Virus record (IMG/VR): IMGVR_UViG_2778261687_000010
Location: 1 to 14,000 of that record
DNA: 14,000 nucleotides
Source of the DNA: a virus
Lineage: Duplodnaviria > Heunggongvirae > Uroviricota > Caudoviricetes
Direction: 5' to 3' (one strand)
Made by a program: the position numbers and the translations under genes. The notes under the pieces were generated by a model that was given only the letters and a program-made list of their open reading frames with translations, was not told the origin of the DNA and made no database searches. Shown here piece after piece: positions 1-14,000 of this stretch (within the stretch, counting starts at the first letter, position 1; each line of letters begins with the position of its first letter).

Positions 1-993
1 CTAGTCGGTGGACATTATGTGGACACTCCCACGCATAGGGTTAAATCGTATGGCATCAGTCAGATAATCTGGGGCGAAGTGAGCATATGTCATTGTTTGC
101 TCGATTGTTGTATGACCCAAAATACGCTGTAGCGTGATGATATTCCCGCCGTTGATCATGAAATGTGTTGCGAAGGTATGGCGTAAAACATGCAGTGCCT
201 GACCTTTCGGCAAGTCTGGCTTAATCTTACGAAGAACATCGCGAACTCGCTCATAGTTGGTATCGAACAATTTCCCCGATTTGCGTGTAAGGATGTAGTC
301 CGCGATTTCCTTCGATATCGGAACAGTACGAGCTGGGCCGGTTTTGGTCTTAACAAAGGTCACACGGTTACTTATCACGTTTTCAGCTTTAAGATTACTG
401 GCTTCACCCCATCGTGCTCCTGTATTCAGGCAAAGAACGACAACTCTGCGATCATCCCCTGTAAGGGCATTCAGCAAATGGTGGATCTCTTCTTCGGACA
501 GAAATGACATTTCTGTGTTTTCCAGACGTAACTTCTTCACGGCGCGAAACGGGTTTTCGTGATGAAATTCTTCCATATCTATCAGCAAACTGAACATGCT
601 GGACATGGAACAGAAATCCCTGTTTACCGTGCCAGCAGATACTCCACTATGAAGTCGTTCTGCACGATATTTCATCAGAAAGTTGCGGGTAAGCTCGTAC
701 ACTCTGGGTTCCGCCATTTCTCGGTTGATTTTTTCCAAACGCTTTTTATATGAGTCACCATAGTTGTGATTCTTTCCATGGTAGCTCCACCATAAAGAAA
801 TTAACTCGGATACAAGCCTCCTGTCTGCGGGTTTATCCTGCCATTCTTTATCGTGAAAGTTTGTCAGTACATACCGCTCGTATGCCTGTGCTTCCGCCTT
901 TCTGTCAAATTTGCGTCGAATCCTTCTTCCTGAGGTTCCGCGCGGTCTAACGTCCACTTCAAAACGACCATCATCAAGCTTCTTAATCGACAT
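1..993 (-). CDS. int: Tyrosine recombinase, P2 Int-like integrase
   Basis: ORF 1..1020 on the minus strand. The N-terminus from the internal ATG at 991-993 (MSIKKLDDGRFEVDVRPRG...RRIRRKFD) closely matches my recollection of the P2 Int N-terminus (MAIKKLDDGRYEVDIRP...). The C-terminal catalytic region carries HVLRHTFATH...GGNIITLQRILGH...YAHF, typical of the R..H..R..Y tyrosine recombinase signature. A GGAGGG Shine-Dalgarno sits about 8 nt upstream of the 993 start. The stop codon is at window position 1-3, so attL should lie just outside the window. Confidence 0.9.
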   Translation of the reverse strand: MSIKKLDDGRFEVDVRPRGTSGRRIRRKFDRKAEAQAYERYVLTNFHDKEWQDKPADRRLVSELISLWWSYHGKNHNYGDSYKKRLEKINREMAEPRVYELTRNFLMKYRAERLHSGVSAGTVNRDFCSMSSMFSLLIDMEEFHHENPFRAVKKLRLENTEMSFLSEEEIHHLLNALTGDDRRVVVLCLNTGARWGEASNLKAENVISNRVTFVKTKTGPARTVPISKEIADYILTRKSGKLFDTNYERVRDVLRKIKPDLPKGQALHVLRHTFATHFMINGGNIITLQRILGHTTIEQTMTYAHFAPDYLTDAIRFNPMRGSVHIMSTD

Positions 994-1059
994 AGCGAAG
1001 CCCTCCGATGTATGAATCATTATGTAAATTTTGCGCTAACGCATAGAAAAACCAGATGT

Positions 1060-1359
1060 TTAGCCAATTTTCCGGGTGGAACGGGATGATGTTATGTTGT
1101 CTTGCCCATCAGGGGAGAGAGACGGGGACACCTGCCCCGCAATTGGTGCCGTCTTATCTGTCATTAACCAGAGTGTATATTTTTCAAACATATGTACCTC
1201 TATAACACTTTCTAAGACTTCTGCACGAGCTGGCTGATGGCCAGTTTCGTACTTTTTTATTGTTCCAAGAGCTACCCCAGTAAGCTCTGAAAAATCTTTT
1301 TGAGTTAACCCTTCAGCTTTCCGGATCTGCCGGAGTTTCTCCGCATAATTTCTTGACAT
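1060..1359 (-). CDS. C: Immunity repressor, P2 C-like (99 aa)
   Basis: 99 aa, the same length as P2 C. The C-terminal half (KYTLWLMTDKTAPIAGQVSPSL...) matches remembered P2 C (KYTLWFMTNQIAPESGQIAP...). The N-terminal helix-turn-helix region reads LTQKDFSELTGVALGTIKKYETG. ATG at 1357-1359, divergent from cox. Confidence 0.85.
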   Translation of the reverse strand: MSRNYAEKLRQIRKAEGLTQKDFSELTGVALGTIKKYETGHQPARAEVLESVIEVHMFEKYTLWLMTDKTAPIAGQVSPSLSPDGQDNITSSRSTRKIG

Positions 1360-1467
1360 GGTTCTTGTATCGCAACTATTATTGGTTCTTACAAAAGAAC
1401 CTTGACAAAAGAACCCTAGAACGACTTAAAGCGCCCTAGGAACCCAAACTAACGAAGGATACCACAG
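1360..1467. promoter_or_regulatory. Divergent early promoter/operator region between C and cox
   Basis: 108 bp between divergent C and cox. Five copies of a GGTTCT/AGAACC half-site: inverted copies at 1360-1365 and 1384-1389, direct copies at 1396-1401, 1410-1415 and 1418-1422. These include an 11-bp direct repeat ACAAAAGAACC at 1391-1401 and 1405-1415. A consensus -35 TTGACA lies at 1402-1407 on the plus strand, overlapped by the repeats. An AAGGA RBS sits 9 nt before the cox ATG. Confidence 0.6.
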
Positions 1468-1749
1468 ATGAAGGAACCAGCAGAAAAGGCGCTTTCAGAG
1501 TTGGTGACCCCTGAGCTTTCTGCCGAATATATAGGCAAAACGCCTGCTGCAATTCGCAAAATGGCCACGGCTGGAAAACTGCCGGTAATCCGCATGAAAG
1601 ACCCTCTAAATCCATCAAAAAAAGGTGGGGAAATCTATATCCATCGGGGGGAATGGGATGCTTATGCCATTCATTTGGCTCAAATTGCCCCGCCTGAATG
1701 GCATGACTGGAAGAACCGTTTATTCACGAAAGATAAAAGTGCTCGTTAG
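1468..1749 (+). CDS. cox: Cox-like excisionase / transcriptional regulator
   Basis: 93 aa; IGKTPAAIRKMATAGKLPVIRMKDPLNPSKKGGEIYIHRGEW aligns with remembered P2 Cox (IGKSTGAVRRMIDKGKLPVIDMTDPQSASGRAGEYWVYLPAW). Position is divergent from C, as in P2. Confidence 0.8.
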   Translation: MKEPAEKALSELVTPELSAEYIGKTPAAIRKMATAGKLPVIRMKDPLNPSKKGGEIYIHRGEWDAYAIHLAQIAPPEWHDWKNRLFTKDKSAR

Positions 1750-1775
1750 TAAACTAAATATTATTGGGGATTATC

Positions 1776-2111
1776 ATGAAGACTAAATATGCCACGCTGA
1801 TTCGTAGTCTGTTGCAAAACTATCACGCTCAGGCAAAAACCATTGATAAAGAAACATTCTCTGTACATAGCGATGGCTTGCAGTTAATGGAATTAAACAT
1901 TCAGCTTGCAAAATGCCTTGAGGGTATAACCTCCACTGCTCGCTTTAATAATGATAGTGATGATTTTGAAGAACTGCACAAAATCACGCTTATGGTATTT
2001 GGCGGAAATATACCAACTGAAAATAACATTTCCGGTCTTATGTCGCTGGCTACCACAGCGTTAAAAAGTAATAACTCGCATCTTAAATCTGTTGCAGCTT
2101 CCCAACGTTAA
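1776..2111 (+). CDS. Hypothetical protein (early region)
   Basis: The ORF-track start at 1764 is TTG; the ATG at 1776 is preceded by GGGGA (1766-1770). No motif recognised. Stop at 2109-2111, 9 nt before the next gene. Confidence 0.5.
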   Translation: MKTKYATLIRSLLQNYHAQAKTIDKETFSVHSDGLQLMELNIQLAKCLEGITSTARFNNDSDDFEELHKITLMVFGGNIPTENNISGLMSLATTALKSNNSHLKSVAASQR

Positions 2112-2120
2112 GGAACCGAT

Positions 2121-2690
2121 ATGAAACATTTAATGATTGACCTTGAAACAATGGATAATAAACCGACTTCTGCGATTGCTTCTATCGGTGCTGTATTCTT
2201 TGACCCTGAAACTGGCGAAATGGGTGAACAGTTTTATCAACGTGTCAGCCTGGGCAGCTGTGTAGGCCACGGTCTCACTATGGGGTCAGAAACCGTATTA
2301 TGGTGGATGCGTCAGGATGCCGAAGCGCGTAGCGAGCTGCTTAATGACGATTGTCTGGACTTGCCTCTGACGTTAGCTAATCTGGAAGCTTTTATTACTG
2401 AGCATTCTGACCCATCTAAAGTACAGGTATGGGGGAATAGTGCAGCGTTCGACAATGTTATTTTACGTAATGCATCAGAGAAATGCGGGTTTGCCGATCC
2501 ACTTTGGTACTACTGGAATGACCGTGATGTAAGAACGGTTGTTGAACTGTCAAAAACACTTGGGCTGAATGTTCGTAATATTATTAAGTTTGATGGTGTT
2601 AAACATCACGCTTTATATGATGCCATTCATCAGGCTAAAGTTGTTTCTTATGTCTGGATGTATCTTGTAAAAATAGCCAGTGTGAAATAA
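2121..2690 (+). CDS. DEDDh-type 3'-5' exonuclease-like protein
   Basis: The N-terminal MIDLET motif has the acidic D-x-E pair of DnaQ-like exonucleases, and the C-terminal HHALYDAIH provides an H-x4-D motif. AAGGA RBS at 2110-2114. Confidence 0.6.
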   Translation: MKHLMIDLETMDNKPTSAIASIGAVFFDPETGEMGEQFYQRVSLGSCVGHGLTMGSETVLWWMRQDAEARSELLNDDCLDLPLTLANLEAFITEHSDPSKVQVWGNSAAFDNVILRNASEKCGFADPLWYYWNDRDVRTVVELSKTLGLNVRNIIKFDGVKHHALYDAIHQAKVVSYVWMYLVKIASVK

Positions 2691-2692
2691 CG

Positions 2693-2911
2693 ATGCTTAC
2701 AGTGACCTCTCATGCAAGTAAAAGTGTCATTCACAAGGCATTTTCAGTGCTGACAGAATATTACAACGGCAAAAAGGTATATCAGGTTATTAAGCCAAAA
2801 CATTATTTCTCTGTTCATGTTTCTTATCGCTGGCGATTACTGAGTAAGGATAAGGGCAGAAGCTGGGAACTAATGACACATGAGCGATATAACAAGCAGT
2901 ACAGAATATAG
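2693..2911 (+). CDS. Hypothetical small protein (72 aa)
   Basis: ATG at 2693, 2 nt after the previous stop (possible coupling). Weak RBS and no recognisable motif. Confidence 0.35.
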   Translation: MLTVTSHASKSVIHKAFSVLTEYYNGKKVYQVIKPKHYFSVHVSYRWRLLSKDKGRSWELMTHERYNKQYRI

Positions 2912-2950
2912 TTTTTGCCTTTTACCCATTATTTCACATCTGGATTATTT

Positions 2951-5608
2951 ATGAACGAAACGATACAACAGGACGTTGTGCGCCGTCTTGTTCGGGACTT
3001 TGAATTTAAAGAGCGGGATAAGTATTTGCAGCAGGGCGTTTGCCCTGCCTGTCGTAAGCGCGAATTATTTACCAGCATAGAAAAGCCCTGGATTCTGAAA
3101 TGTGGCCGTGAAAATAACTGCGCACATCAGATTGTCGTGAAAGAGCTGTATCCGGATATCTTTGAAGACTGGTCAAAACGTTACCAGACCACAGAAGATA
3201 ACCCCCATGCAGTAGCTGAGGCGTATCTGCGCGAGGCCAGAGGGCTGGAGACTGAGCCATTAAAAGGCTGTTTTACCCAGGGTGCATTCGTGAAAGATGG
3301 CATGGGGTCGGCAACGGTCAGATTTTCGCTGTCATGCGGTGCAACATGGGAGCGCATCATTGACCAGCCGCAGCGCTTCGGTAAGCAGAAAGCCAACATC
3401 AGGGGAAGCTATGTCGGTCACTGGTGGGTTCCTCCCTTTATCAACCTGCAGGAAGTGAACGAAATCTGGATCACTGAGGGAATCTTCAACGCGCTGAGTC
3501 TGTGCCAGGTAGGGTTACCTGCAGTTGCCACACTGAGCAGTAACAACTATCCGCTGGCCGCACTGGATACGCTGGCCAAAGAACTGGGTGAAAAACCACG
3601 TCCACGTCTTGTATGGGCGTTTGACGGCGATAAAGCCGGCACAAAGCACACACTGGCGTTCGCTGCCCGTAGTGATGCTGCAGGATGGAAAACTCGTGCC
3701 GCGCAGCCGGTGAAATCATCGGCATCGCTGGACTGGAATGACCTGTTGTTACGTAACCGGTTCAGTAAGTCGGACATTAAAAATTATCGCTACTATGGCG
3801 ATCTCCTTCTGGCAAAAAGCCCGACTGAGAAAGCGCTGCTCATGCATCAGCATAACGAGTGGCACTCGTTCTACTTTGAGCATAACTCCCGCATGTACTG
3901 GTTTGAGCTGGATCTGGACAGGTATATGCGAGCCTATGAGCGCATCACCAATACCGGTACCGAAGTGGTGATGGAGTGGGAGGCCAAAGAACGGGCGGTT
4001 AAAGAGTCAGGCGGCGTGACCGAAATAGCTAACTGCTGGCTGACGCCGCTTTACTTTCAGCGGTCTGAACCTACGGACGAGTCCTGGTATTACGTGAAAG
4101 TCAGTATGCCTAACCGGCCAGCCGTGAAAGATACTTTCACGGCTAATCAGCTCACCAGCTCCGCCGAGTTCAAAAAGCGTCTGCTGCACATCGCCAAAGG
4201 GGCGGTGTACACAGGCAGCACCAAACAGCTGGATAAGTTCATCCAGATGCGCCTCCCTGAAATCAAAGAGGTAAAGACGCAGAATTTCATCGGCTATAAC
4301 AAGGATTATGCCGCCTGGTTGTTTAACCGCGTGGCCGTTTGCGATGGCCGGCTGTATGAGATGAACGACGAGGATTACTTCGAAATCAACAGTGCCAGCG
4401 TTAAGAGCCTGAGCCTCACGCCGGCGCTGGATCTGAATCCGAAGCTGAACGAGTTTACTACGGGTTGGGTAGACGATATCTGGACGGCATTTGGTGAAAA
4501 AGGGTATGTGGCGCTGGCGTTCTGGCTGGGGTCGCTGTTTGCCGAACAAATCCGCGAGCGTGACAAGTCATTTCCGTTTCTGGAAATCGTGGGCGAGCCG
4601 GGGACAGGTAAATCCACGCTGATAGAATTTCTCTGGAAGCTCGCCGGCCGTGAGGAATACGAAGGGTTTGACCCATCTAAATCTACCGCCGCCGCGCGTG
4701 GCCGTAACTTCGCCCAGGTCGGTAATCTGCCGGTTGTGCTGATTGAGGGCGACCGTACTACCGATAACGCCAAGCAACGCGCTTTTGACTGGGACGAGCT
4801 GAAATCACTGTATAACGGTCGTGCCTCCCGCGCCGTGGGTATCAAATCGAACAATAACGAGACGTATGAGCCGCCGTTCAGGGGAAGTATTGTGATAGCG
4901 CAAAATGCCGACACAGACGGCAGCAAGGCGTTTCTGGAGCGTATCATCCACATCTATACCGACAAGCGCGGCCAGTCCATTCAGACGCGCCACGCTGCAG
5001 AACGACTTGAACAACTCCCCGTTAGCCAGGTATCCGGATTCACATTACTGGCCACCATGCGCGAAAAAGAAATCATGCAGACGTTCGGCAGGGGGTACGA
5101 GCGAGCTAGGAATGAGCTGGAGTCTAATAGCAGTATTCGCCATATCCGTATTGCAAAGAATCACGCGCAGCTTGTGGGCTTGCTGGAGGCGCTTGCACTT
5201 GTTGTACCGGTGCCGGTTGAACGTATAGAAAAAACGCGTGAAGCCATCACCGCGCTGGCCGTTGAACGTTGTCAGGCACTTAAAAAGGATCATCCTCTGG
5301 TGCAGGAGTTCTGGGAGCTGTTTGATTACTTGGATGAACTGGCACCTTATGGCATCAATCATTCATCAGATGAAAATGAAATCGCGGTTAATTTCAATCA
5401 CATGGAAGAGGTCGCCGCAGCACACCGGCAGCGTATTCCGTTCACGTTAACGGAAATTAAAAAGCTGCTTAAAAACGGCAATGAGCGCCGGTTTATCAGA
5501 CAAAGCACCACGCGCAGCGCGGTAAGTGAGCGCCATAATCGTGGTAAAGGGGATATGCAACGGATGCCGGAAACATTCCGCTGCTGGATATTTGGCCGGG
5601 AAAAGTAA
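2951..5608 (+). CDS. Replicative primase-helicase (zinc ribbon + TOPRIM primase fused to Walker-A NTPase)
   Basis: The ORF-track start at 2915 is TTG; the first ATG is at 2951 (MNETIQQ...). Zinc-ribbon CPACRKRE...CGRENNCAHQ near the N-terminus. TOPRIM-like WITEGIFNALS and AFDGDKAG (DxD). Walker A EIVGEPGTGKSTLIEF, with a candidate Walker B VVLIEGD. The architecture resembles P4 alpha-type primase-helicases and is not a rolling-circle initiator like P2 A. Confidence 0.8.
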   Translation: MNETIQQDVVRRLVRDFEFKERDKYLQQGVCPACRKRELFTSIEKPWILKCGRENNCAHQIVVKELYPDIFEDWSKRYQTTEDNPHAVAEAYLREARGLETEPLKGCFTQGAFVKDGMGSATVRFSLSCGATWERIIDQPQRFGKQKANIRGSYVGHWWVPPFINLQEVNEIWITEGIFNALSLCQVGLPAVATLSSNNYPLAALDTLAKELGEKPRPRLVWAFDGDKAGTKHTLAFAARSDAAGWKTRAAQPVKSSASLDWNDLLLRNRFSKSDIKNYRYYGDLLLAKSPTEKALLMHQHNEWHSFYFEHNSRMYWFELDLDRYMRAYERITNTGTEVVMEWEAKERAVKESGGVTEIANCWLTPLYFQRSEPTDESWYYVKVSMPNRPAVKDTFTANQLTSSAEFKKRLLHIAKGAVYTGSTKQLDKFIQMRLPEIKEVKTQNFIGYNKDYAAWLFNRVAVCDGRLYEMNDEDYFEINSASVKSLSLTPALDLNPKLNEFTTGWVDDIWTAFGEKGYVALAFWLGSLFAEQIRERDKSFPFLEIVGEPGTGKSTLIEFLWKLAGREEYEGFDPSKSTAAARGRNFAQVGNLPVVLIEGDRTTDNAKQRAFDWDELKSLYNGRASRAVGIKSNNNETYEPPFRGSIVIAQNADTDGSKAFLERIIHIYTDKRGQSIQTRHAAERLEQLPVSQVSGFTLLATMREKEIMQTFGRGYERARNELESNSSIRHIRIAKNHAQLVGLLEALALVVPVPVERIEKTREAITALAVERCQALKKDHPLVQEFWELFDYLDELAPYGINHSSDENEIAVNFNHMEEVAAAHRQRIPFTLTEIKKLLKNGNERRFIRQSTTRSAVSERHNRGKGDMQRMPETFRCWIFGREK

Positions 5609-5654
5609 CGGTTCACTAGTGCCTAACTTTATTGTTAGGGGAAGGAGCGAACAT

Positions 5655-5700
5655 TGAAGCAATAGGGGCGTTATCTTTATTGCTTCATTCTTATTTTAAA
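5655..5700 (+). terminator. Hairpin plus T-tract after the primase gene (candidate intrinsic terminator)
   Basis: 10-bp inverted repeat TGAAGCAATA (5655-5664) / TATTGCTTCA (5678-5687) followed by TTCTTATTTT. The stop codon of the convergent minus-strand gene (5677-5679) lies inside the hairpin. A second short hairpin, CCTAAC-N6-GTTAGG, is at 5622-5639. Confidence 0.45.
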
Positions 5701-6396
5701 GTTCTTTAATTTACCGTACAGAGTATCCCGCAGGGAAAACGAAGGAACCCAATCAAAACCAGTACGCCAGGGGCGTGGACTGCCATGAAAGCAAACAACC
5801 GCCACATTATCAGGGACTTTCCCTGTCGCAGCCTCAGAGGCTAAATTTGCATTGAAGCCAATCATCGAGGGGGTGGCGATGTCACATTTATAACTAACAA
5901 TTGAGCCAGGAATGATATCCTGCCATAGGGCTGGTTTTATGATGCTACCGAGAAATCCCTGATCACCCCATTTGTCTTCAGTCTGACAATTGCGCATAAT
6001 TTTCTCAGGATCAATAATGAATTGTTCCCAAATCGTCTTTTTAATCGACGCCGGAATCATCATTATTGATGAGTTTACTCTTGAGGCATGGTTAAACTCC
6101 CGAAGCATTGTAAATTTCTTCGCACCTTCGAAAATATGAATATCTCCCGTGACCACAACATCTACGTCAAAATAGAGTAAATCTTGGTCTCCAAGGACTG
6201 GGTGATTAGGATTAAATAGTTCAATTTTAGACCACCATCCCGGCCAGTTATAAAGCAAAGGGGTTGTGTTAACTCCAGGAATATTATCTGCATCGGTTAA
6301 ACATATAGATGGAATATCTTTGAACTGACGATGAAGCCATTGGGCGTGTTTAGGGGTAAACTCTTTACTACATTTAAGAACTGAGACTATTAACAT
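5677..6396 (-). CDS. Cargo protein, putative GT-A-fold (DxD) nucleotide-sugar transferase-like; function unknown
   Basis: 239 aa with an ATG at 6394-6396 and a strong GGGAGG Shine-Dalgarno about 8 nt upstream. Visibly more AT-rich than the flanking prophage genes. Contains LLYFDVDVVVTGDI (hydrophobic strand plus DxD) and C-terminal FHGSPRPW, reminiscent of GT8-type glycosyltransferase motifs. No obvious transmembrane segments. Bounded by terminator-like hairpins on both sides. Confidence 0.75.
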   Translation of the reverse strand: MLIVSVLKCSKEFTPKHAQWLHRQFKDIPSICLTDADNIPGVNTTPLLYNWPGWWSKIELFNPNHPVLGDQDLLYFDVDVVVTGDIHIFEGAKKFTMLREFNHASRVNSSIMMIPASIKKTIWEQFIIDPEKIMRNCQTEDKWGDQGFLGSIIKPALWQDIIPGSIVSYKCDIATPSMIGFNANLASEAATGKVPDNVAVVCFHGSPRPWRTGFDWVPSFSLRDTLYGKLKNFKIRMKQ

Positions 6397-6500
6397 AAGA
6401 TGCCTCCCAAAATTTGGAAAGATAATATCATGTTTAGGAGGGGGGGACTATTAATCACTTGGTCATTCATCGACGTTGATAGATGGGAATCTGTTACATC

Positions 6501-6536
6501 TCAGAAAATAAAAGCACCGGTAGCGGTGCTTTTTTC
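6501..6536 (-). terminator. Intrinsic terminator downstream of the ogr-like gene
   Basis: Hairpin AGCACCG-GTAG-CGGTGCT at 6513-6530, flanked by T-runs on both strands: TTTTTT at 6531-6536 on the plus strand, and TTTATTTTCTGA on the minus strand (complement of 6501-6512). It lies directly after the ogr stop (6536-6538) and separates ogr from the 5677-6396 cargo gene. Confidence 0.55.
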
Positions 6537-6865
6537 TATGCGGCAGCAGTGCCGTCCTGACTCAGAAACTTTAACATCAGCTGCTTTTGCTGGATATCAA
6601 GGCTGTTACAGATAGTGGCGATCAACGCATCGCTGGATTTGGCGCTGGGGCTGATGGTATGTGAGAATGTCATATTCATCACAAAAGTGTGACCACATTC
6701 AACATCGGTACACGCGCAATATAAATCCGACAGTTCCTTGTGTTTTCGGGCTGTTTTTTTGATAACAGCCCTTGCCTCACATACCGGACAGTAAACCTTC
6801 ATTACCCGCATATCCATCGCTCCGGAAGTTGGAAAACGATGATATTTTAGCCTTTTTGCGAACAT
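6536..6865 (-). CDS. ogr: Ogr/Delta-family zinc-finger late transcription activator
   Basis: CPVCEARAVIKK...YCACTDVECGHTFV fits the Ogr/Delta C-x2-C...C-x4-C zinc-finger pattern (P2 Ogr: CPLCQ...YHQCQNVNCSATFI). The longest ORF starts at the ATG at 6863-6865, overlapping the portal stop as TAATG. Internal ATGs at about 6809-6817 (MDMRVMKVYCP...) would give a more Ogr-like N-terminus. Confidence 0.75.
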   Translation of the reverse strand: MFAKRLKYHRFPTSGAMDMRVMKVYCPVCEARAVIKKTARKHKELSDLYCACTDVECGHTFVMNMTFSHTISPSAKSSDALIATICNSLDIQQKQLMLKFLSQDGTAAA

Positions 6866-7884
6866 TAATCACCTTCCAGCTCACTGTCTTTCAGGAAATT
6901 AAGGTACAGGTGGGGCGGTACATCACTTTCCTGTTCCACTGCGGCGGTAAACATGCGCTGAATGGGCAAAATTTCTGCTTTGCGGTAGGTTTTGGACGCT
7001 TTCTCAACATCTCCCATTACTGCGCCGTTCGTCGGGATAATCCCCGCCAGTCCTGCCGGGAATCGATGCGCGGTCAGTACGTCCTGGGCGCTGATGCTCT
7101 TGATGTTCTGAAACTCATCTTTGGCGCTGATATCCCCAATCGGGATAAATTTGATGCCGTCCGGATCGCCTTTGGGGATGTTCACAAACATGGTGCTGAA
7201 GTTCCCGATCCCCTTTGACTGCTCCAGCTTCTGAATAATTTCTTCTTCCACTTCATCAGTCATATTTGGGTCGTTACAGTAGATCATGCCACCTGTGTGT
7301 CCGCCGTTATGGTAGTAACGCCGACGAAAAATTGTTGCCTCACCGTTAAGCAGGGCAGAATGGATACCGCTGATATAATCCGGCAGACCATAAATCGCCT
7401 GTTGCGGATCGTACTGCCTGAGAAAAATAATATCTTCAGGCGGATAAATCATCGGTTCACCCTGCTGCAGTACCACAAACTCCCCGGTCTTACGCTGGCG
7501 GGTATAGAGTGCCGGCAGCGGGTACAGTGCCACCACATCCCCCCAGCCGTTACGCACTTTCAGAATGGCCACATCACCGAAGGTCAGCCAGTCGAACACG
7601 GCTGCACCAAGCTGTTCATGCGTCAGTCCGCCGTCTTTATAGTTTGCCGTCACCATATTGCGACGGGCATACAGCACACCGCCGTGCTGCGCGTTCAGGT
7701 TCACCAGTTGCGCCAGCGCCAGCCGGTCAATCGGGAGCGTCCAGTGTTCCGCTTCATTGTCATACCAGACGTCTGTGTAGTTTGTGCCGGTCGTCAGAAT
7801 GGGTTCCGGTTTACCCAGGGTAATAAGGCTCATATGGCGCGGCTTGCTGGCGGTGCGGCGTTCCCTGTATTTCCGTTTTTTCAT
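6865..7884 (-). CDS. Q: Portal protein, P2 gpQ-like
   Basis: 339 aa, with a size and position typical of P2 Q (immediately downstream of the terminase large subunit on the same strand). AGGGA RBS upstream; the start overlaps the stop of the upstream gene as ATGA. Confidence 0.75.
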   Translation of the reverse strand: MKKRKYRERRTASKPRHMSLITLGKPEPILTTGTNYTDVWYDNEAEHWTLPIDRLALAQLVNLNAQHGGVLYARRNMVTANYKDGGLTHEQLGAAVFDWLTFGDVAILKVRNGWGDVVALYPLPALYTRQRKTGEFVVLQQGEPMIYPPEDIIFLRQYDPQQAIYGLPDYISGIHSALLNGEATIFRRRYYHNGGHTGGMIYCNDPNMTDEVEEEIIQKLEQSKGIGNFSTMFVNIPKGDPDGIKFIPIGDISAKDEFQNIKSISAQDVLTAHRFPAGLAGIIPTNGAVMGDVEKASKTYRKAEILPIQRMFTAAVEQESDVPPHLYLNFLKDSELEGD

Positions 7885-8855
7885 GCTGCTTTCCCTAAGT
7901 TACCCCAGCGTGATTTTCGCTGGTTTTCAAAGTTTAATGGCTCGTTGTCAATGGCATGGGCGATAGCCCAGAAACTGTCTGCGTGTCCTGTTTCTGCTGT
8001 GCGATCGGCGACGAAAGTCATTGCGTTGCCGCTGGCCGTGGACGTACGGCGGATGGTCATAAAGCTGGCGGCGATTTCGGTCTTCTCCTTATCCCATTCC
8101 ACGCGGCCGTCTTCGATAACGTCGATCATCTTCATCACCAGACGATTTTTGGTCTCGACGCCGTAGCGGATCGCCACTGCCTGACGCATGGCAAAGTGCT
8201 GAACGTCTTCAAAGACACCGCTACCCAGTCCAGTGATATCAATGCCGATGTAGGTCATGTTGTACTGGCCAAACAGCTTCTTAATCTGTGCCGCCTGCCA
8301 CTTCCAGTTCATCCCCTGCCAGTGGAATACACGCAGTACCCGAAATTTTTCGCCGGCCACTATCGGCGGCGCGATGATCACGAAGGTGGAGGTGTCTCCG
8401 CTGCGAGCCGGGTCATAACCCGCCCACACTTCACGGTTGCCGAACGGCCGGGGCAGGTTTTCGTCATGATCCTCCCAGATATCCGGATCTACACAGCAGC
8501 GTTCTACGTGAGAGAACGAAAATACGCTGTCCTTGCTGTCCACGAACACGCACATATACAGCATGTTGAAAGTGTCGCGGTTGTAGCGGTTGCGCAGCTT
8601 CCCGATGCTGGCGAGATTAAACCCGCCTGCGATCGCGTCTTCCATTGTGATGATGTAGCGCCACTGCCCATCAGGACATAACCGTCCACCGTCGCGCAGC
8701 TCCTTCTCCGTGGGAAATTGTACGCGCGCGCGTTTTTTGTCACCGCGCTTCCATTCTTCACCAGTCCAGAACGGGTACGCCTGGTGCGTTTTGCTGCTGG
8801 GGGTGGAAAAGTAGGTGGTTCGCCATTTGTCGTGTGTGGCCATCGCGCTGGCCAC
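7881..8855 (-). pseudogene. P: Terminase large subunit (P2 gpP-like), 5'-truncated: nuclease domain only
   Basis: The ORF begins with GTG at 8853-8855 and the frame is open only back to about 8885. The C-terminal half carries nuclease-domain features (WAGYDPARSGDTSTFVIIA, GIDITGLGSG, HADSFWA). No Walker A (GxxxxGK[ST]) anywhere. At about 324 aa it is far shorter than typical large terminases, so the ATPase half is missing. Confidence 0.7.
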
Positions 8856-8879
8856 TTCGTTTAATTTTGCAAAGTTGGG

Positions 8880-9100
8880 TATCTGCTATTGAAACCCGTC
8901 TGGGTGAGGCGGAAGAAGCGGTATCTGATGTGCAGGACGATGTGGACACCGTGAAGGAAGTAGTGGACACCGAAGATTTTGCGCGTCTGGTGGGGAACCT
9001 GCCGGAGCTGGTGAAAAACTTCAGCAAGCTGAATAACAAAGTTACTCAACTGCCGGACAAGAAATTCAGCAAGGGCAAAAAAGGCTTCAATTTCCTGTAA
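8880..9100 (+). pseudogene. O: Capsid scaffold (P2 gpO-like) 3' fragment
   Basis: Short acidic, coiled-coil-like ORF tail (AIETRLGEAEEAVSDVQDDVDTVKEVVDTEDF...KKFSKGKKGFNFL) ending 34 nt before the capsid gene, as O precedes N in P2. Only about 70 codons are plausibly scaffold. The assignment rests on position and composition. Confidence 0.4.
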
Positions 9101-9134
9101 GGGATAACACTACTTTTCTTTAAGGAAAAAGAAT

Positions 9135-10163
9135 ATGCAATTAAATGCGAAAGCCCGTGAGTTTCTGCTTCAGTATCACACCGGGCTGCGTGAATCCTAC
9201 GGGGCGACCGACAGCGAACGCTGGTTTGCACTCACCGACCCCAAAGAAACCCAGCTGCGCAATGCGCTGATGGAGCAGTCTGATTTCCTGAATCTGATCA
9301 CCGTTGCCGATGTCGATCAGCTGCAGGGGCAGGTGGTTCCGGTTGGCAGCTCTGGCCTGTATACCGGGCGTGTACTGGATGGCCGCTTCCGTAAGAAAGT
9401 GGGCGTGAGTGGTAATGATTACAGTCTGGTCGAGACCGACTCATGCGCCGCACTCACCTGGCAGTTGCTTTCTGTCTGGGCGAACGCCGGCGATGAAAAC
9501 GAGTTTTTCCAGCGTGTTCAGGAGTTCACCAATCAGGCGTTTGCGCTGGATATGCTGCGTATCGGCTTTAACGGTACCAAAGTGGCTGAGACCACGAACG
9601 CGGAAACCAACCCGAACGGCGAGGATGTGAACAAGGGCTGGCATCAGATCGTCAAAGAGTGGAAGGACGGCCAGCAGATCATCACTGATGCGGTGGTGCT
9701 TGACGGTGACGGGAAAGGCGATTACGTGTCGCTGGATGCAATGGCCTCCGACCTTATCAACGCCAAAATCCCGGCACAGTACCGTAATGATCCACGCCTG
9801 GTGGTTCTTGTCGGCGCTGATCTGGTCGCGGCGGAGTCGTTCCGTCTGTATCAGAAAGCAGACAAACCCACGGAGAAGATCGCCGCGCAACTGCTGTCTG
9901 ACAGCATCGCCGGCCGCACGGCTTACGTACCGCCGTTTATGCCAGGCAAACGCATGATTGTTACGACACTGCCAAACCTGCACATCTACACCCAGCGCGG
10001 CACGCGTCAGCGTAAAGCGGAGTTTGTGGAAGACCGTAAACAGTACGAAAACAAATACCTGCGTAACGAAGGTTATGCGGTTGAGTATCCGGAACTGTAC
10101 GCCGCGTTTGATGAAAGTGCGGTAGCTATCGGGGCACCTGTCGCGCCTCCGGCAGGCGAGTAA
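9135..10163 (+). CDS. N: Major capsid protein, P2 gpN-like
   Basis: 342 aa, with several blocks matching remembered P2 gpN: FLNLITVADV vs FLTRINIVPV, IGFNGTKVAETTNAETNP vs AGFNGVKRAETSDRSSNP, DPRLVVLVGADLVAAESF vs DPDLVVIVGRQLLADKYF. AAGGAAAAAG RBS upstream. Confidence 0.85.
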   Translation: MQLNAKAREFLLQYHTGLRESYGATDSERWFALTDPKETQLRNALMEQSDFLNLITVADVDQLQGQVVPVGSSGLYTGRVLDGRFRKKVGVSGNDYSLVETDSCAALTWQLLSVWANAGDENEFFQRVQEFTNQAFALDMLRIGFNGTKVAETTNAETNPNGEDVNKGWHQIVKEWKDGQQIITDAVVLDGDGKGDYVSLDAMASDLINAKIPAQYRNDPRLVVLVGADLVAAESFRLYQKADKPTEKIAAQLLSDSIAGRTAYVPPFMPGKRMIVTTLPNLHIYTQRGTRQRKAEFVEDRKQYENKYLRNEGYAVEYPELYAAFDESAVAIGAPVAPPAGE

Positions 10164-10173
10164 GGGGGATTTA

Positions 10174-10743
10174 ATGCAACTGTCACCGGCACAGCGCCAC
10201 AGCGCACGAATTGAAGCGGAGCGGTTACTGCGACAGCAGCAGTCTCTGGACACGGAAACCAGCCTGCATATTCAGATTGTCGCGCTGGAGAAAGATGTCG
10301 CCGCAGCTGCAGCGATTGAAAGCCGCGCTGAGCGAATGGAATTTAAGCGTGATGTGCTGTTACCGCGCTGGATGCCAACCGCGCAATCCTGGCTGGAAGG
10401 TGACAGTGTGCAACAGAATCCTGTTTTTGCCTGGTGTGTCGTCTGGCTGTTTGATACAGGCCAGTTTGACCAGGCGCTGGACTGGGCGGATGTGGCAATC
10501 CAGCGGGGGCAGGAAACCCCGGCCGCGTTCGGCAGTACGTTCCCGGTGTTTGTGGCGGATACGGTGTTGTCCTGGGCGGAAGCGGAAGCCGTACAGGGGC
10601 ATGATGTGGAGCCGTATTTTGGCCGTACGCTGGAAAACGTGACGCAGCACTGGAATGTGTATGAGGTCATTAAGGCCAAATACGGGGATGGCCATAAAAG
10701 GCGCGTTATCGCCGGCTATCGAAATGTACGACGCGCTGAATGA
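10174..10743 (+). pseudogene. M: Terminase small/endonuclease subunit (P2 gpM-like), probably 3'-truncated
   Basis: N-terminal MQLSPAQRHSARIEA, LLPRWMPT and WLFDTGQFDQALDWADVAI resemble P2 gpM (SPAQRH..., LLPFWLPW, WRLDTGDIAGALEIARYAL). At 189 aa it is shorter than the roughly 247 aa I recall for P2 gpM. Its 3' end overlaps, out of frame, an ORF with tape-measure character. AAGGGGGA RBS upstream. Confidence 0.65.
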
Positions 10744-11419
10744 TGCCGCCGCAAAAGGGATTGATAATCAGGCATTAAAGACAGTACAGCGTGACGCGCT
10801 CCGGTTCAGCATGACCTACGGTGCCAGCGCGGTGGAGTTCGTCAAATCCACAGAGAACATTAACGCTTCCATTGCCGGCCTTACCGCCAGCGAGCTGCCG
10901 AAAGTGACGAAGGTCGCTAATACGCTGGCATTTGCCCTGAAATCCACATCCGCCGACACGGCGGAGTTCATGGGGCAGATGTACGGTAACTTTTCCGCCG
11001 ATGCGGCGCGGCTGGGTAAAGTCCAGTTCGCTGAGCAACTGGCGGGGAAAATGGTGTATATGCGCAAGGTCTTCGGTACCGAAATGGGTACCATCAAAGA
11101 CCTGATGGAAGGGGCGCGAGGTGTCGGGACTAACTACGGCGTCGGGCTGGATGAACAGCTGGCGGTGCTGGGACAGCTAAATCGTACGCTGGGAACAGAA
11201 GCCAGTAGCGCTTACGAAGGCTTCATGACCGGCGCGATGGAGGGAGCTAAAAAGCTGGGGCTGTCCTTCACGGACTCCACCGGCAAAATGCTGTCCATGC
11301 CTGAAATGCTGATCAAGCTGCAGGGCAAATACGGCAAAAGCCTGGAAGGGAACCTGAAAGCCCAGGCGGAGCTGGATGCGGCATTTGGTGACAGTTCAGC
11401 GGTGATAAAACACCTGTAG
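10655..11419 (+). pseudogene. T: Tail tape measure protein fragment (core region)
   Basis: The translation has tape-measure core character: Ala/Gly/Leu-rich with repeated GxxxA and LGxxA blocks (e.g. LAVLGQLNRTLGTEASSAYEGFMTGAMEGAKKLG). It is only about 250 aa, starts inside the M ORF in another frame, and no tail genes precede it. Confidence 0.6.
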
Positions 11420-11454
11420 CCGGGTGTTATCTGCTGATTAAACACTGGGATGAT

Positions 11455-11901
11455 GTGAAAGCGGCGGTGATGAATACGGCAGCGTTTACCGCCGTGGCTG
11501 GTGTGGTGGAATGGCTTGCCGGCGTGTTTTCCGCTGCGTGGCAATGGATCACGGACGGCTGGAACAGCTTTATTGCGCTGCTGACCGGGTTTTCACCGTC
11601 ACAGGCGTTAAGCGGCATGGCCAGCGGGATTGTTTCCCTGTTTGATAACGTCTGGCAGACCATCAAAGGCGGGTTCCTGAAATCGTGGAACTGGATTGTC
11701 GGAAAACTCAATAAAATTCCGGGCGTCGATATTTCACTGGCGAACGAATCTCAACCGGCACTGACAACGAATACCAGAACATTATCGCCTGATTTCTCAA
11801 CCAGCCCGCGTCATGCGGGCTTTATCGCACCCACCAGACCTCACCAGACGCATTCTGAGCGCCGACAGTATCTACACCCGCTCCAATCCCAACTTAATTA
11901 G
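11455..11901 (+). pseudogene. T: Tail tape measure protein fragment (second piece, different frame)
   Basis: W-rich repeats typical of tape-measure C-terminal regions (AAWQWITDGWNSF..., VWQTIKGGFLKSWNWIVGKL). The frame differs from the 10655-11419 piece, and the last 40 or so codons look like out-of-frame read-through. Confidence 0.45.
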
Positions 11902-11976
11902 CTTTAAAAGCACAGCAAGGCGCTGATGCAGCCTGCCACGACGAAATAACGGCGGAAGTGACGAAAACGGCGCTAC

Positions 11977-12000
11977 ACCGCACCCGCCTGCGGTTTTCGT
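11977..12000 (+). terminator. Candidate intrinsic terminator
   Basis: ACCGCA-CCCGCC-TGCGGT hairpin (6-bp GC-rich stem) at 11977-11994 followed by TTTCGTGTT. Confidence 0.35.
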
Positions 12001-12452
12001 GTTGAGAATGATTTCAGTTTTTCTGGGGGTACAAAACACATCGCCAGACTGCGCCAGCGCTGGGGCTTTGGCGGTAGTTCACCGACTGAAATATGTGAAA
12101 CAGATTTCAAGGATTACAGTTTTTGTGCAATTACCGGCCGTGGGTGAAAAATGACGGTGCCGGACTTCATGCGGGTTTAACAGTGATTACGTGACTTTTA
12201 ACGTAACGGCCGCAGCGGGATCACGTAAGCGGGAGAAAGTGACAAGGCCTTATTTGATGTGTTCTGGCGCGGAATGACCGTGAGATGCGGAACTGAAATA
12301 CTTTGCACAGCCTGAACTATAGCCATACCTACATTAACGTACTGCACCAATGCTCAAATCACTAACAGAGATATATACAAAACCACCAACAAATCAGGGT
12401 GATTTCTGACCACTTCTAATTTTTTCAAAAATTTAGGGGGAGCATCGGAAAA

Positions 12453-12718
12453 CCGTCACAAACATCACAGATTTAAAAAATATCATTTATCTATATGATA
12501 TGTATAAGTAAATTCATATATTGAAAACCATCACAAGAGCATCACAAGAGCATCACAGTGTGACGGCCTTAAAACATCACAACTCTGTTTTATAACTCGC
12601 TGAATTTATAGGGTGTGACGGTTTACGTTACGTTTTGTGATGGTTTTACCATCACAACATTTATTCATGATAATCAGATGGTTAATGGTTTTTTTTGTGG
12701 GGCGTGATGGTTGTGACG
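12453..12718. repeat. Iteron-like array: about 12 copies of C(C/A)(G/A)TCACA(A/G) in both orientations flanking an AT-rich tract
   Basis: Direct copies at 12453-12460, 12463-12470, 12529-12536, 12540-12547, 12551-12558, 12575-12582 and 12649-12656. Inverted copies (TGTGA(C/T)GG) at 12559-12566, 12614-12621, 12636-12643, 12703-12710 and 12712-12718. Includes a tandem 11-mer CATCACAAGAG x2 (12529-12550) and a perfect palindrome TGTGATGG-TTTTA-CCATCACA (12636-12656). An AT-rich stretch at 12471-12528 sits between the first and second repeat clusters. Confidence 0.7.
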
Positions 12719-12785
12719 TTTTTCCGATGGGCAACTTAAAAATGCTAAGTAAGACGAAACAAAATTTTAACAGCGTGGTGGGATA

Positions 12786-12805
12786 GCGCCCCTGTTCAGG
12801 GGCGC
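12786..12805. terminator. GC-rich hairpin just downstream of the acyltransferase gene (possible terminator)
   Basis: GCGCCCCTG-TT-CAGGGGCGC perfect inverted repeat beginning 8 nt past the minus-strand stop codon (12813-12815). There is no strong U-tract on either side, so its terminator function is uncertain. Confidence 0.3.
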
Positions 12806-12812
12806 AAATGTT

Positions 12813-14000
12813 CTACTTTGCAATCTGAAGTTGAGGACGCTTATGTATGATGCTGCGACTTTCGACATATTTGTACATAACCGGCGCAATGATACCTGCC
12901 GCAATAATTGCACAAATCTGCCAAACATAGTTTCCTGCACTATATAAATAATGTTTAGATACTGTTTGAGTTATCCCATGAACTAAATAAAGGGAGAAAC
13001 TGCAGGTTCCCAGCATAGTTACAGGCAGGGATGTAAGTAAGCCAAAGTAATCACATCCGCACTTTATTGTGTAGAAAACAATAAACATATAAAGCGGAGT
13101 TGTAGTGTTGTAAGCATGTCGAGTAAAATATATGGCTGCGAATAATAATAAAGCGCAGATTATATCTGATGGGCGCTTGTTGCTCTTGATTGTAGCGACA
13201 AGAAATCCTGCAAGGAAATACATTATATAACTCAGGTGTTGTTCATTGTTTATAAAATACTTGAATAATAAAACACATCCCATTAAAAAAATAACAAATG
13301 CTTCTTTATATTTGATGTTTTTCATTATCAGATATAAAAATGGAATTGCAAGGTATAGGCGTAATTCCCAGACTAACGTCCAGAACACACCAGATGTGGC
13401 AATCTGGAGCGATACACCATTGATGTTAGCGCCAGGCGGATTGAATATAAATGGTAATGAAGATATAAACCATTGCGATACTGGAGTATGGTTATCCGGA
13501 TTCATGATAAATGTTGCAATATATATTATAAATAAAAGAACAACTACAGGTGGGTAAATTCGCATGAATCGTGAAATTGCAAAGCTTTTTACATCGAAGG
13601 AGTCCGCTAGTGCCTTTTTGAAAAATAAAAAAGCAGACAGCATAAAAAAGACCCCAACAGATAACTCTCCTGTTAGATATATGGCGCGTTTTACATTGCT
13701 GAGTGTAATGTACTCAAGAGACCAGTATATATCTGATTCTCCTCCGGCTCTCCAGTAAAGATGGAATACAGCAACCATTGCTGCACAAATTCCACGTAAG
13801 CCATCAAGCGAGGCGTATTTATGTTTTGCAGGTGTAATACCCAATAACTTAGAAGTGACATATATTGTCGCTATAAGTATGCTGAGATAAAGTCCGTATT
13901 CAAAAATATATTTCATTATAATAATTACGCTTGGTGTTTTTATGGATGTTAACATTTTTTGCGGATGTCGGGAATGCTCTGTGGACTTATTGACACGCAT
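12813..14000 (-). CDS. Acyltransferase-3 family integral membrane protein (O-antigen/polysaccharide O-acetyltransferase-like)
   Basis: SLDGLRGICAAMVAVFHL matches the N-terminal signature of acyltransferase-3 / OafA / Oac-type enzymes (LDGLRG...A..VV..H). The remainder is highly hydrophobic with multiple predicted transmembrane segments. The region is very AT-rich. The true start is uncertain: the ORF is open to the window edge, and in homologues the LDGLRG motif lies about 10-35 residues from the N-terminus, so an internal start is plausible. Confidence 0.8.
   Translation of the reverse strand: MRVNKSTEHSRHPQKMLTSIKTPSVIIIMKYIFEYGLYLSILIATIYVTSKLLGITPAKHKYASLDGLRGICAAMVAVFHLYWRAGGESDIYWSLEYITLSNVKRAIYLTGELSVGVFFMLSAFLFFKKALADSFDVKSFAISRFMRIYPPVVVLLFIIYIATFIMNPDNHTPVSQWFISSLPFIFNPPGANINGVSLQIATSGVFWTLVWELRLYLAIPFLYLIMKNIKYKEAFVIFLMGCVLLFKYFINNEQHLSYIMYFLAGFLVATIKSNKRPSDIICALLLFAAIYFTRHAYNTTTPLYMFIVFYTIKCGCDYFGLLTSLPVTMLGTCSFSLYLVHGITQTVSKHYLYSAGNYVWQICAIIAAGIIAPVMYKYVESRSIIHKRPQLQIAK

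Follow-up and report, generated by a model that had tools for sequence, protein, structure and literature searches.

The window analysed here is a 14,000-nucleotide stretch of caudoviricete DNA (positions 1 to 14,000 of IMG/VR record IMGVR_UViG_2778261687_000010), in which the longest open reading frame at the locus under study (6536..6865, minus strand) starts with an ATG (Met1) and encodes an Ogr/Delta-type protein of 109 aa. Directly upstream on the same strand lies the portal gene (6865..7884), a homologue of P2 Q that matches Pfam Phage_portal and is annotated as such in relatives. The two genes meet within the pentamer TAATG (6863..6867, minus strand), where the junction reads GAT TAA TG and the last A of the portal stop codon (6867-6865) is the first base of the ATG (6865-6863). 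A ribosome-binding-like GGTG motif (6871-6874) is found 3 nt upstream of this pentamer. At the other end of the frame, an intrinsic terminator (6510..6533, minus strand) consisting of a 10-pair hairpin with a dG of -15.3 kcal/mol (z = -3.4) and a following T-run closes the ogr gene and also marks the end of the whole terL-portal-ogr operon of the intact phage. The first-pass annotation had claimed both the start/stop overlap and a terminator belonging to ogr, and both were confirmed in the sequence. An Rfam search of 6300-7100 returned only a sub-threshold match (26.4 versus 55 bits) to the Salmonella sRNA STnc50 at 6458-6541 on the plus strand, opposite to ogr and overlapping the terminator, that is probably due to chance.

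Identity of the portal-adjacent protein

The 109-aa protein matched Pfam Ogr_Delta (PF04606) over residues 26-71 with an E-value of 1.1e-15 and 57.7 bits (cut-off 26.3), covering positions 2-47 of the 47 in the profile, and also matched PHROG 603, annotated as 'transcriptional regulator' (E=2.5e-38). Its zinc-finger region, as delimited by Cys alignment and the Pfam match, extends from C26 to C57 (6695..6790, minus strand) with the spacing CX2CX22CX4C. When the protein was aligned with P2 Ogr, 186 B and P4 Delta, a check that had been proposed for the assignment, no loss of this spacing was seen; C26, C29, C52 and C57 were the sole invariant metal ligands, and an additional invariant Cys50 was specific to the subfamily. 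More than 186 homologues were found in databases, therefore 6536-6865 is not a chance ORF, and the RefSeq entry for the identical protein (WP_000457450.1, annotated at 109 aa) is named 'ogr/Delta-like zinc finger family protein'. AlphaFold predicted residues 21-70, which comprise the zinc ribbon, with high confidence and residues 1-20 with low confidence (pLDDT 45-54). A PDB sequence search and a Foldseek search with the predicted model gave nothing significant and no solved structure of a relative, the best sensible structural matches being Rpb9/A12-type zinc ribbons at an E-value of about 0.3. The product of 6536-6865 is a genuine single-domain Ogr/Delta zinc-finger protein, as had been claimed from the letters of the DNA.

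Comparison with the characterized members of the family showed that P2 Ogr and 186 B share with the window protein the Pfam family, the Cys spacing and the position of a small activator at the 3' end of a late operon. They are unlike it in that identity is only 20–26%, tblastn at 1e-3 gives no connection and the C-terminal halves are unrelated; pairwise BLASTP against P2 Ogr gave 26% over 38 aa (E=2e-4), which is short of close similarity. P4 Delta also belongs to the Ogr/Delta zinc-finger family, but it is a 166-aa tandem duplication located in a satellite next to sid and psu, whereas a single domain in a helper-type phage is found here. Identity to phage members of a portal-adjacent Ogr clade was considerably higher, at 39–64%.

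Start signals at the portal-ogr junction

The first Cys is residue 26 in the window protein and residue 4 in P2 Ogr, which gives the longest ORF an N-terminal surplus of about 22 aa over Ogr, close to the extension of about 20 aa that had been estimated earlier. This ORF exceeds a conserved internal start, Met19 (ATG 6811-6809), by 18 aa. An alternative start at roughly 6809 had likewise been put forward and is probably the main one, as homologues in loci lacking a portal gene start at Met19 and this codon is preceded by a GGAG Shine-Dalgarno motif (6820..6823, minus strand) with an 8-nt spacer. The core ORF from Met19 (6536..6811, minus strand) would encode 91 aa, the probable main product. 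Inside the extension lies a conserved -10-like hexamer, TAAAAT (6844..6849, minus strand), whose end is 32 nt away from Met19, compared with 33 nt in P2 ogr and 31 nt in 186 B between the end of the annotated -10 element and the ATG. Start annotation in this group is inconsistent, with 109 aa given by RefSeq and 91 aa by some gene callers.

Start signals were analysed in 48 unique portal-ogr junctions, whose sequences are phylogenetically related and whose counts are thus not of independent events. The overlapping ATG was kept in nearly all of these junctions, two loci having GTG or TTG in its stead and L011 having lost it, and the base before TGA was always A despite the varying last residue of the portal protein, with GGTG just upstream. 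No in-frame stop was found within the extension in any of the 48 junctions, compared with stops in frame 2 in 15. The distance from the portal stop to Met19 was 50 or 53 nt in 47 of the 58 portal-linked loci.

Codon-position entropy was 0.95/0.90/1.19 for the extension versus 0.63/0.31/1.34 for the core. Codon 6 was NTA in all 48 junctions, in comparison to 26% of Leu/Val/Ile codons in the core, while codon 7 was AAA in 45 of the 48, codon 8 began with T in every case whichever amino acid it encoded, and codon 15 was GGA in 40. Conservation of K4, L/V/I6, K7, G15 and A16 is accounted for by the DNA motifs TAAAAT and GGAG, and the approximately 54 nt between the portal stop and Met19 are constrained as nucleotides, almost without amino-acid constraint. 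The conservation of these two motifs argues in favour of Met19 as a real start.

Homologues without an upstream portal gene begin at Met19, often with an in-frame stop 6–21 nt upstream, and carry -10-like elements of their own, tailocin-linked copies included. Met19 is a GTG codon in the Providencia and Siccibacter loci and is absent from two database homologues that retain Met22. The -35 region of the putative ogr promoter is poor (2–3 of 6 positions) and a TG extended -10 is present in only some relatives. As a sigma-70 consensus scan of 6300-9200 returned no promoter-like site, this promoter is proposed purely from conservation. Met19 is probably a genuine start with the 91-aa protein (6536-6811) as main product, and the conservation of both the overlapping ATG and the open frame makes it likely that a portal-coupled 109-aa form is produced as well.

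Alternatively, the annotated 109-aa protein may be the sole product, with functional first 18 residues and neither an internal promoter nor an internal start. This reading agrees with the RefSeq annotation, with the conserved overlapping ATG and its upstream GGTG, and with a frame 0 that is free of stops in all 48 junctions. We consider it unlikely, however, since the extension is almost devoid of amino-acid constraint and its conserved residues coincide with TAAAAT and GGAG, portal-less homologues (again including tailocin-linked ones) start at Met19, the K139 and phiO18P proteins do not have an extension, AlphaFold predicts this part at low confidence, and Met1 has been lost in L011. A frameshift at the slippery A-run of the extension was also considered and was rejected, the heptamer being out of frame and not conserved.

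Gene order in P2-like phages and their satellites

On the P2 and 186 maps, ogr and B follow the tail gene D next to att, and the window gene is not located there, for which reason its position had been described as non-canonical. Our survey does not bear this description out: of the 88 fetched and reference loci with an Ogr homologue, 58 have a portal gene immediately before it on the same strand, and the order terL-portal-Ogr occurs in the Peduoviridae genera Seongnamvirus, Tresduoquattuorvirus, Irrigatiovirus, Longwoodvirus, Bielevirus and Hpunavirus. The identical 1-nt overlap is seen within the terL-portal-regulator order of Cronobacter phage ESSI-2 (Seongnamvirus), and in Yersinia phage vB_YenM_324 and Salmonella phage SW3 portal and regulator overlap by the 4 nt ATGA. 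The gene also follows the portal gene in K139 (with the small orf14 in between) and in phiO18P (after a 65-nt gap), and HP1 has an unannotated ORF in the same place. An ogr homologue between portal and replication endonuclease was described for K139 and Smhb1 in a 2021 paper (PMC8537503). The copy of Burkholderia phi52237 lies in the early region, showing that the post-portal place is not universal. The HP1 ORF (L008 3001-3216; NC_001697 10420-10635), located between the portal gene and terminator T31, was recognized as Ogr-like by tblastn at 39% identity (E=1e-10).

A tblastn search of the phage collection gave 153 records with a portal-adjacent-type protein, and a second search gave 241 records for the P2-type Ogr clade, with only two records shared among the matches listed, which indicated that the two clades are largely separate. 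By its sequence the window gene falls within the portal-adjacent Ogr clade (PHROG 603; ESSI-2, K139 and HP1 type) and not within the P2 Ogr orthologue group. Its post-portal place is unusual in comparison to P2 and 186 but normal for its own clade. The earlier suggestion of a different P2-family gene order is thus correct in that the order differs from that of P2, but this order proved to be the norm for a known group, an outcome that had been named beforehand as one that would refute the non-canonical reading.

Within this clade, ESSI-2 gp32, vB_YenM_324 gp11 and the Salmonella SW3 and SI7 homologues are most readily compared with the window gene, sharing terL-portal-regulator synteny, an overlap of 1 or 4 nt and 48–64% amino-acid identity, which for ESSI-2 takes in the N-terminal extension. 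These phages differ in possessing a gpA-type nickase where a toprim primase is found here, and the window copy resides in a defective prophage with deletions. K139 orf13 (a zinc-finger protein), the Smhb1 homologue, phiO18P gp19 and the HP1 ORF belong to the same protein clade (39–50% identity) and lie between the portal and replication genes, and K139 and phiO18P also share a TTCGG...CCGAA dyad between terL and scaffold. Unlike the window gene, the members of this second group are separate genes after a gap, with no N-terminal extension and no portal overlap, and K139 has in addition the intervening orf14 and an annotated promoter, P13.

It had also been suggested that a satellite-like delta gene was captured into the prophage. 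Homologues of about 55% identity do exist in P4-like satellite contexts, for example L060 (with Ash, a P4 alpha-type primase and Ogr/Delta), and the early region of this prophage carries a toprim primase as opposed to the gpA-type replication protein of ESSI-2. Capture of a P4 Delta-like activator behind the portal gene is nevertheless very improbable and is unsupported by the gene itself, a syntenic, single-domain gene 56–64% identical to those of ESSI-2 and vB_YenM_324. The same place and overlap recur across six phage genera and 58 loci, a single zinc finger is present in comparison to the tandem 166-aa Delta, the intact relative is a full 28.9-kb phage, and nucleotide identity to relatives falls gradually over the portal-ogr junction with no insertion scar. 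Relative to the nearest relatives, this identity is about 90% in the portal gene, about 70% in the zinc finger and about 50% in the 3' half of ogr, and sequences are unrelated past the terminator, a graded fall that fits the edge of a conserved module.

Two further observations concern this boundary and the satellites. When L012, L013 and L016 were compared with window positions 6536-7000, the portal protein was 93–94% identical and Ogr only about 60%, and nucleotide identity stepped down over the portal 3' end and ogr, which identifies this stretch as a mosaic boundary of the head module. Members of the portal-adjacent clade also occur as satellite-borne or orphan copies, in parallel to the P2 Ogr and P4 Delta pair. 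The Pectobacterium polonicum locus L060 (62-8105; also L062 and L068) looks like a P4-like satellite with genes for an Ash family protein, DUF5375, a P4-alpha-type primase (Zn-ribbon/Toprim/DUF927), the Ogr/Delta homologue and an AbiEii-like AAA protein, and has a full-length gene for a P2-family major capsid protein (E=1.7e-65) ahead of it, at the edge of the fetched flank; a P2-type capsid gene of its own would be unusual for a satellite.

Prophage decay, a candidate target and proposed late gene control

The window is 99.9% identical to a prophage that several E. coli genomes carry between pheA/pheL and raiA. The copy in E. coli strain STK78-E (L001) spans 28.9 kb, looks complete and carries genes for integrase, repressor, Cox, exonuclease, toprim primase, cargo, ogr, portal, large terminase, scaffold, P2-family capsid and small terminase, together with head-completion, tail, lysis, fibre and acyltransferase genes. 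The intact relative thus has the P2-type portal, terminase, scaffold and capsid genes that agree with the linkage of the Ogr/Delta family to late genes of P2-like phages and satellites.

In comparison to L001 (blastn), the window has undergone four deletions, corresponding to L001 11881-13422, 15228-20639, 21378-21932 and 22291-29639, with junctions in the window at 8879-8881, 10681-10683, 11418 and 11772-11775 that each show 1–4 nt of microhomology. The genes for large terminase, scaffold, small terminase and tape measure are truncated by these deletions, and most tail genes have been lost. The first took away the 5' half of terL, of which a 3' remnant persists (7881..8880, minus strand, cut at junction 8879-8881), along with the 5' part of the scaffold gene and the divergent late promoters with a TTCGG-N14-CCGAA dyad. 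The same deleted structure at the same chromosomal site was found in independent public assemblies by way of the truncated small-terminase product, and the prophage is therefore a natural, degraded one; a look-up of the truncated terminase product returned no record. Other remnants with different deletions exist, and L094 is even more deleted. The window ogr gene would accordingly be classed, by its sequence context, as an orphan activator that has neither a co-transcribing late promoter nor a recognisable target.

Several other features of this prophage were recorded. Cargo genes occupy the edges of the structural module, namely a glycosyltransferase gene (5677-6396, minus strand; PHROG 1962, E=6e-81, no Pfam match) and an acyltransferase gene (Acyl_transf_3; 12813-14000, minus strand), and both may be surface-polysaccharide modification morons. 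The replication gene (2915-5608, plus strand) is of the Toprim/DUF5906 primase-helicase type as opposed to the gpA-type nicking protein of ESSI-2, vB_YenM_324, K139 and P2, which indicates that the early module was exchanged in this lineage. For the small ORF at 2693-2911, the annotation of one relative (L090) gives a ParE-toxin-like product. The divergent repressor/Cox region (1380-1425) contains repeated GGTTCTT...AAGAACC palindromic words (GGTTCTTACAAAAGAACCTTGACAAAAGAACC) that are likely operators and have no copy near ogr, and a search for repressor-operator words of 8 nt or longer common to the early switch (1356-1475) and the region upstream of ogr returned none.

In an alignment of the terL/scaffold spacers from 52 loci, the dyad TTCGG-N13/14-CCGAA was present in 48, including K139 and phiO18P; P2, SW3 and one Photorhabdus locus lack it, and the copy in L069 is degenerate. 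Conserved -10-like hexamers lie on both sides of the dyad, CATAAT towards terminase and GATACT or AATAAT towards scaffold. About 54 nt separate the centre of the dyad from the terminase-side hexamer. On the scaffold side this distance is 44 nt in L001 and in eight other loci, and in most of the remaining loci an insert of roughly 10 bp in the alignment, or one helical turn, would put the hexamer about 54 nt away. These distances would place the dyad at about -56 or -66, comparable with the -55 site common to the P2 P and O promoters. Exactly one dyad occurs in the intact prophage (L001 12716-12739). The window contains no copy, none being found upstream of ogr, and there is thus no sign of self-activation of the putative ogr promoter. 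Matches to the P2-style motif TGT-N12-ACA in the intact prophage fell only within annotated gene coordinates, and this motif was dropped in favour of the conserved dyad. On the terminase side of L001 (12662-12680), only 6 nt separate CATAAT from the annotated start codon of terL, so that the terL mRNA would be almost without a leader unless this start has been mis-annotated; an insert of 40–50 nt is present there in other relatives.

A separate set of loci carries an Ogr homologue adjoining a TTCGG-N14-CCGAA dyad promoter. In Xenorhabdus beddingii (L070 6004-11657; also L051, L056-L058 and L075) these accompany a headless, tail-only cluster among chromosomal genes that encodes gpR, a sheath-like DUF2586 protein, HP1 Orf24, a chaperone and a tape measure, and that probably represents a xenorhabdicin-type tailocin under Ogr control. 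Xenorhabdicin loci were previously reported to be flanked by ogrK (PMC13280938). Such orphan ogrK-type genes offer the closest analogy for the window copy as activators without a complete phage, and L070 has both a member of its protein clade and the dyad. They differ from the window, where the recognisable target has been deleted, in having kept the target promoter and tail genes.

The co-occurrence of dyad and Ogr homologue supports, without proving, the dyad as the activator site, and the dyad between the divergent terL and scaffold promoters is the probable target of the activator. Its sequence is unlike that of the P2 activator sites, and the one link between protein and site is consequently the analogy with P2. 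That the protein is a zinc-ribbon factor with another role, such as Lar-like restriction alleviation or nucleic-acid binding, is the least credible alternative, as its only other Pfam match, a weak one to Lar_restr_allev (E=2.6e-4, 21.6 bits), is below the cut-off of 28.6 while Ogr_Delta is far over its own, the gene co-occurs with the conserved dyad at late promoters even in tail-only clusters, and, like its counterparts in P2 and 186, it comes last in a late operon.

The best overall explanation, to which we assign a probability of roughly 80% with the mechanism proposed here included, is that the gene encodes a late activator of the ESSI-2/K139/HP1 branch of Peduoviridae and is the last gene of the terminase-portal late operon. 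Expression of ogr would follow two routes. By the first, a weak promoter of its own with TAAAAT as the -10 element would start transcription near 6837, yielding an mRNA translatable only from Met19 and hence the 91-aa core protein. By the second, once late transcription is on, read-through from terL and portal, coupled in translation at TAATG, would produce the 109-aa form with its basic tail, which is unstructured in the model. Both routes together would form a positive feedback loop. The same logic would apply as for P2 ogr and 186 B, each of which closes a late operon, has a promoter of its own about 31–33 nt upstream and shares the operon's terminator. The activator would most likely bind TTCGG-N13/14-CCGAA between the divergent terL and scaffold promoters and recruit RNA polymerase. 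As the dyad and both late promoters are gone from the window, its copy would be an orphan made from its own promoter only and acting in trans only.

It is further suggested, tentatively and at less than even odds, that the junction is a compact control element on a single ORF, in which a portal-coupled ribosome-binding site and ATG, an embedded -10 element and a second ribosome-binding site and start would provide a short form early and a long, basic-tailed form late, with feedback, and that the gene in the remnant could act on the dyads of other elements.

In summary, the gene, its family and its gene order are already known; modest additions are the overlapping start and putative promoter signals together with the dyad, for which no description was found in literature searches that were not aimed at them. 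The gene order of P2 should not serve as the reference for all P2-like phages, and a post-portal Ogr gene needs no flag as unusual. The dyad may provide a simple marker of late promoters in this phage branch and in related tailocins. An activator gene can stay intact in a defective prophage from which its target is gone, and could then still affect other elements. If the reading of the junction as a control element is true, the short form made by the remnant could switch on late genes in relatives that enter the cell, in satellites or in tailocin clusters, provided that these carry TTCGG-N14-CCGAA.
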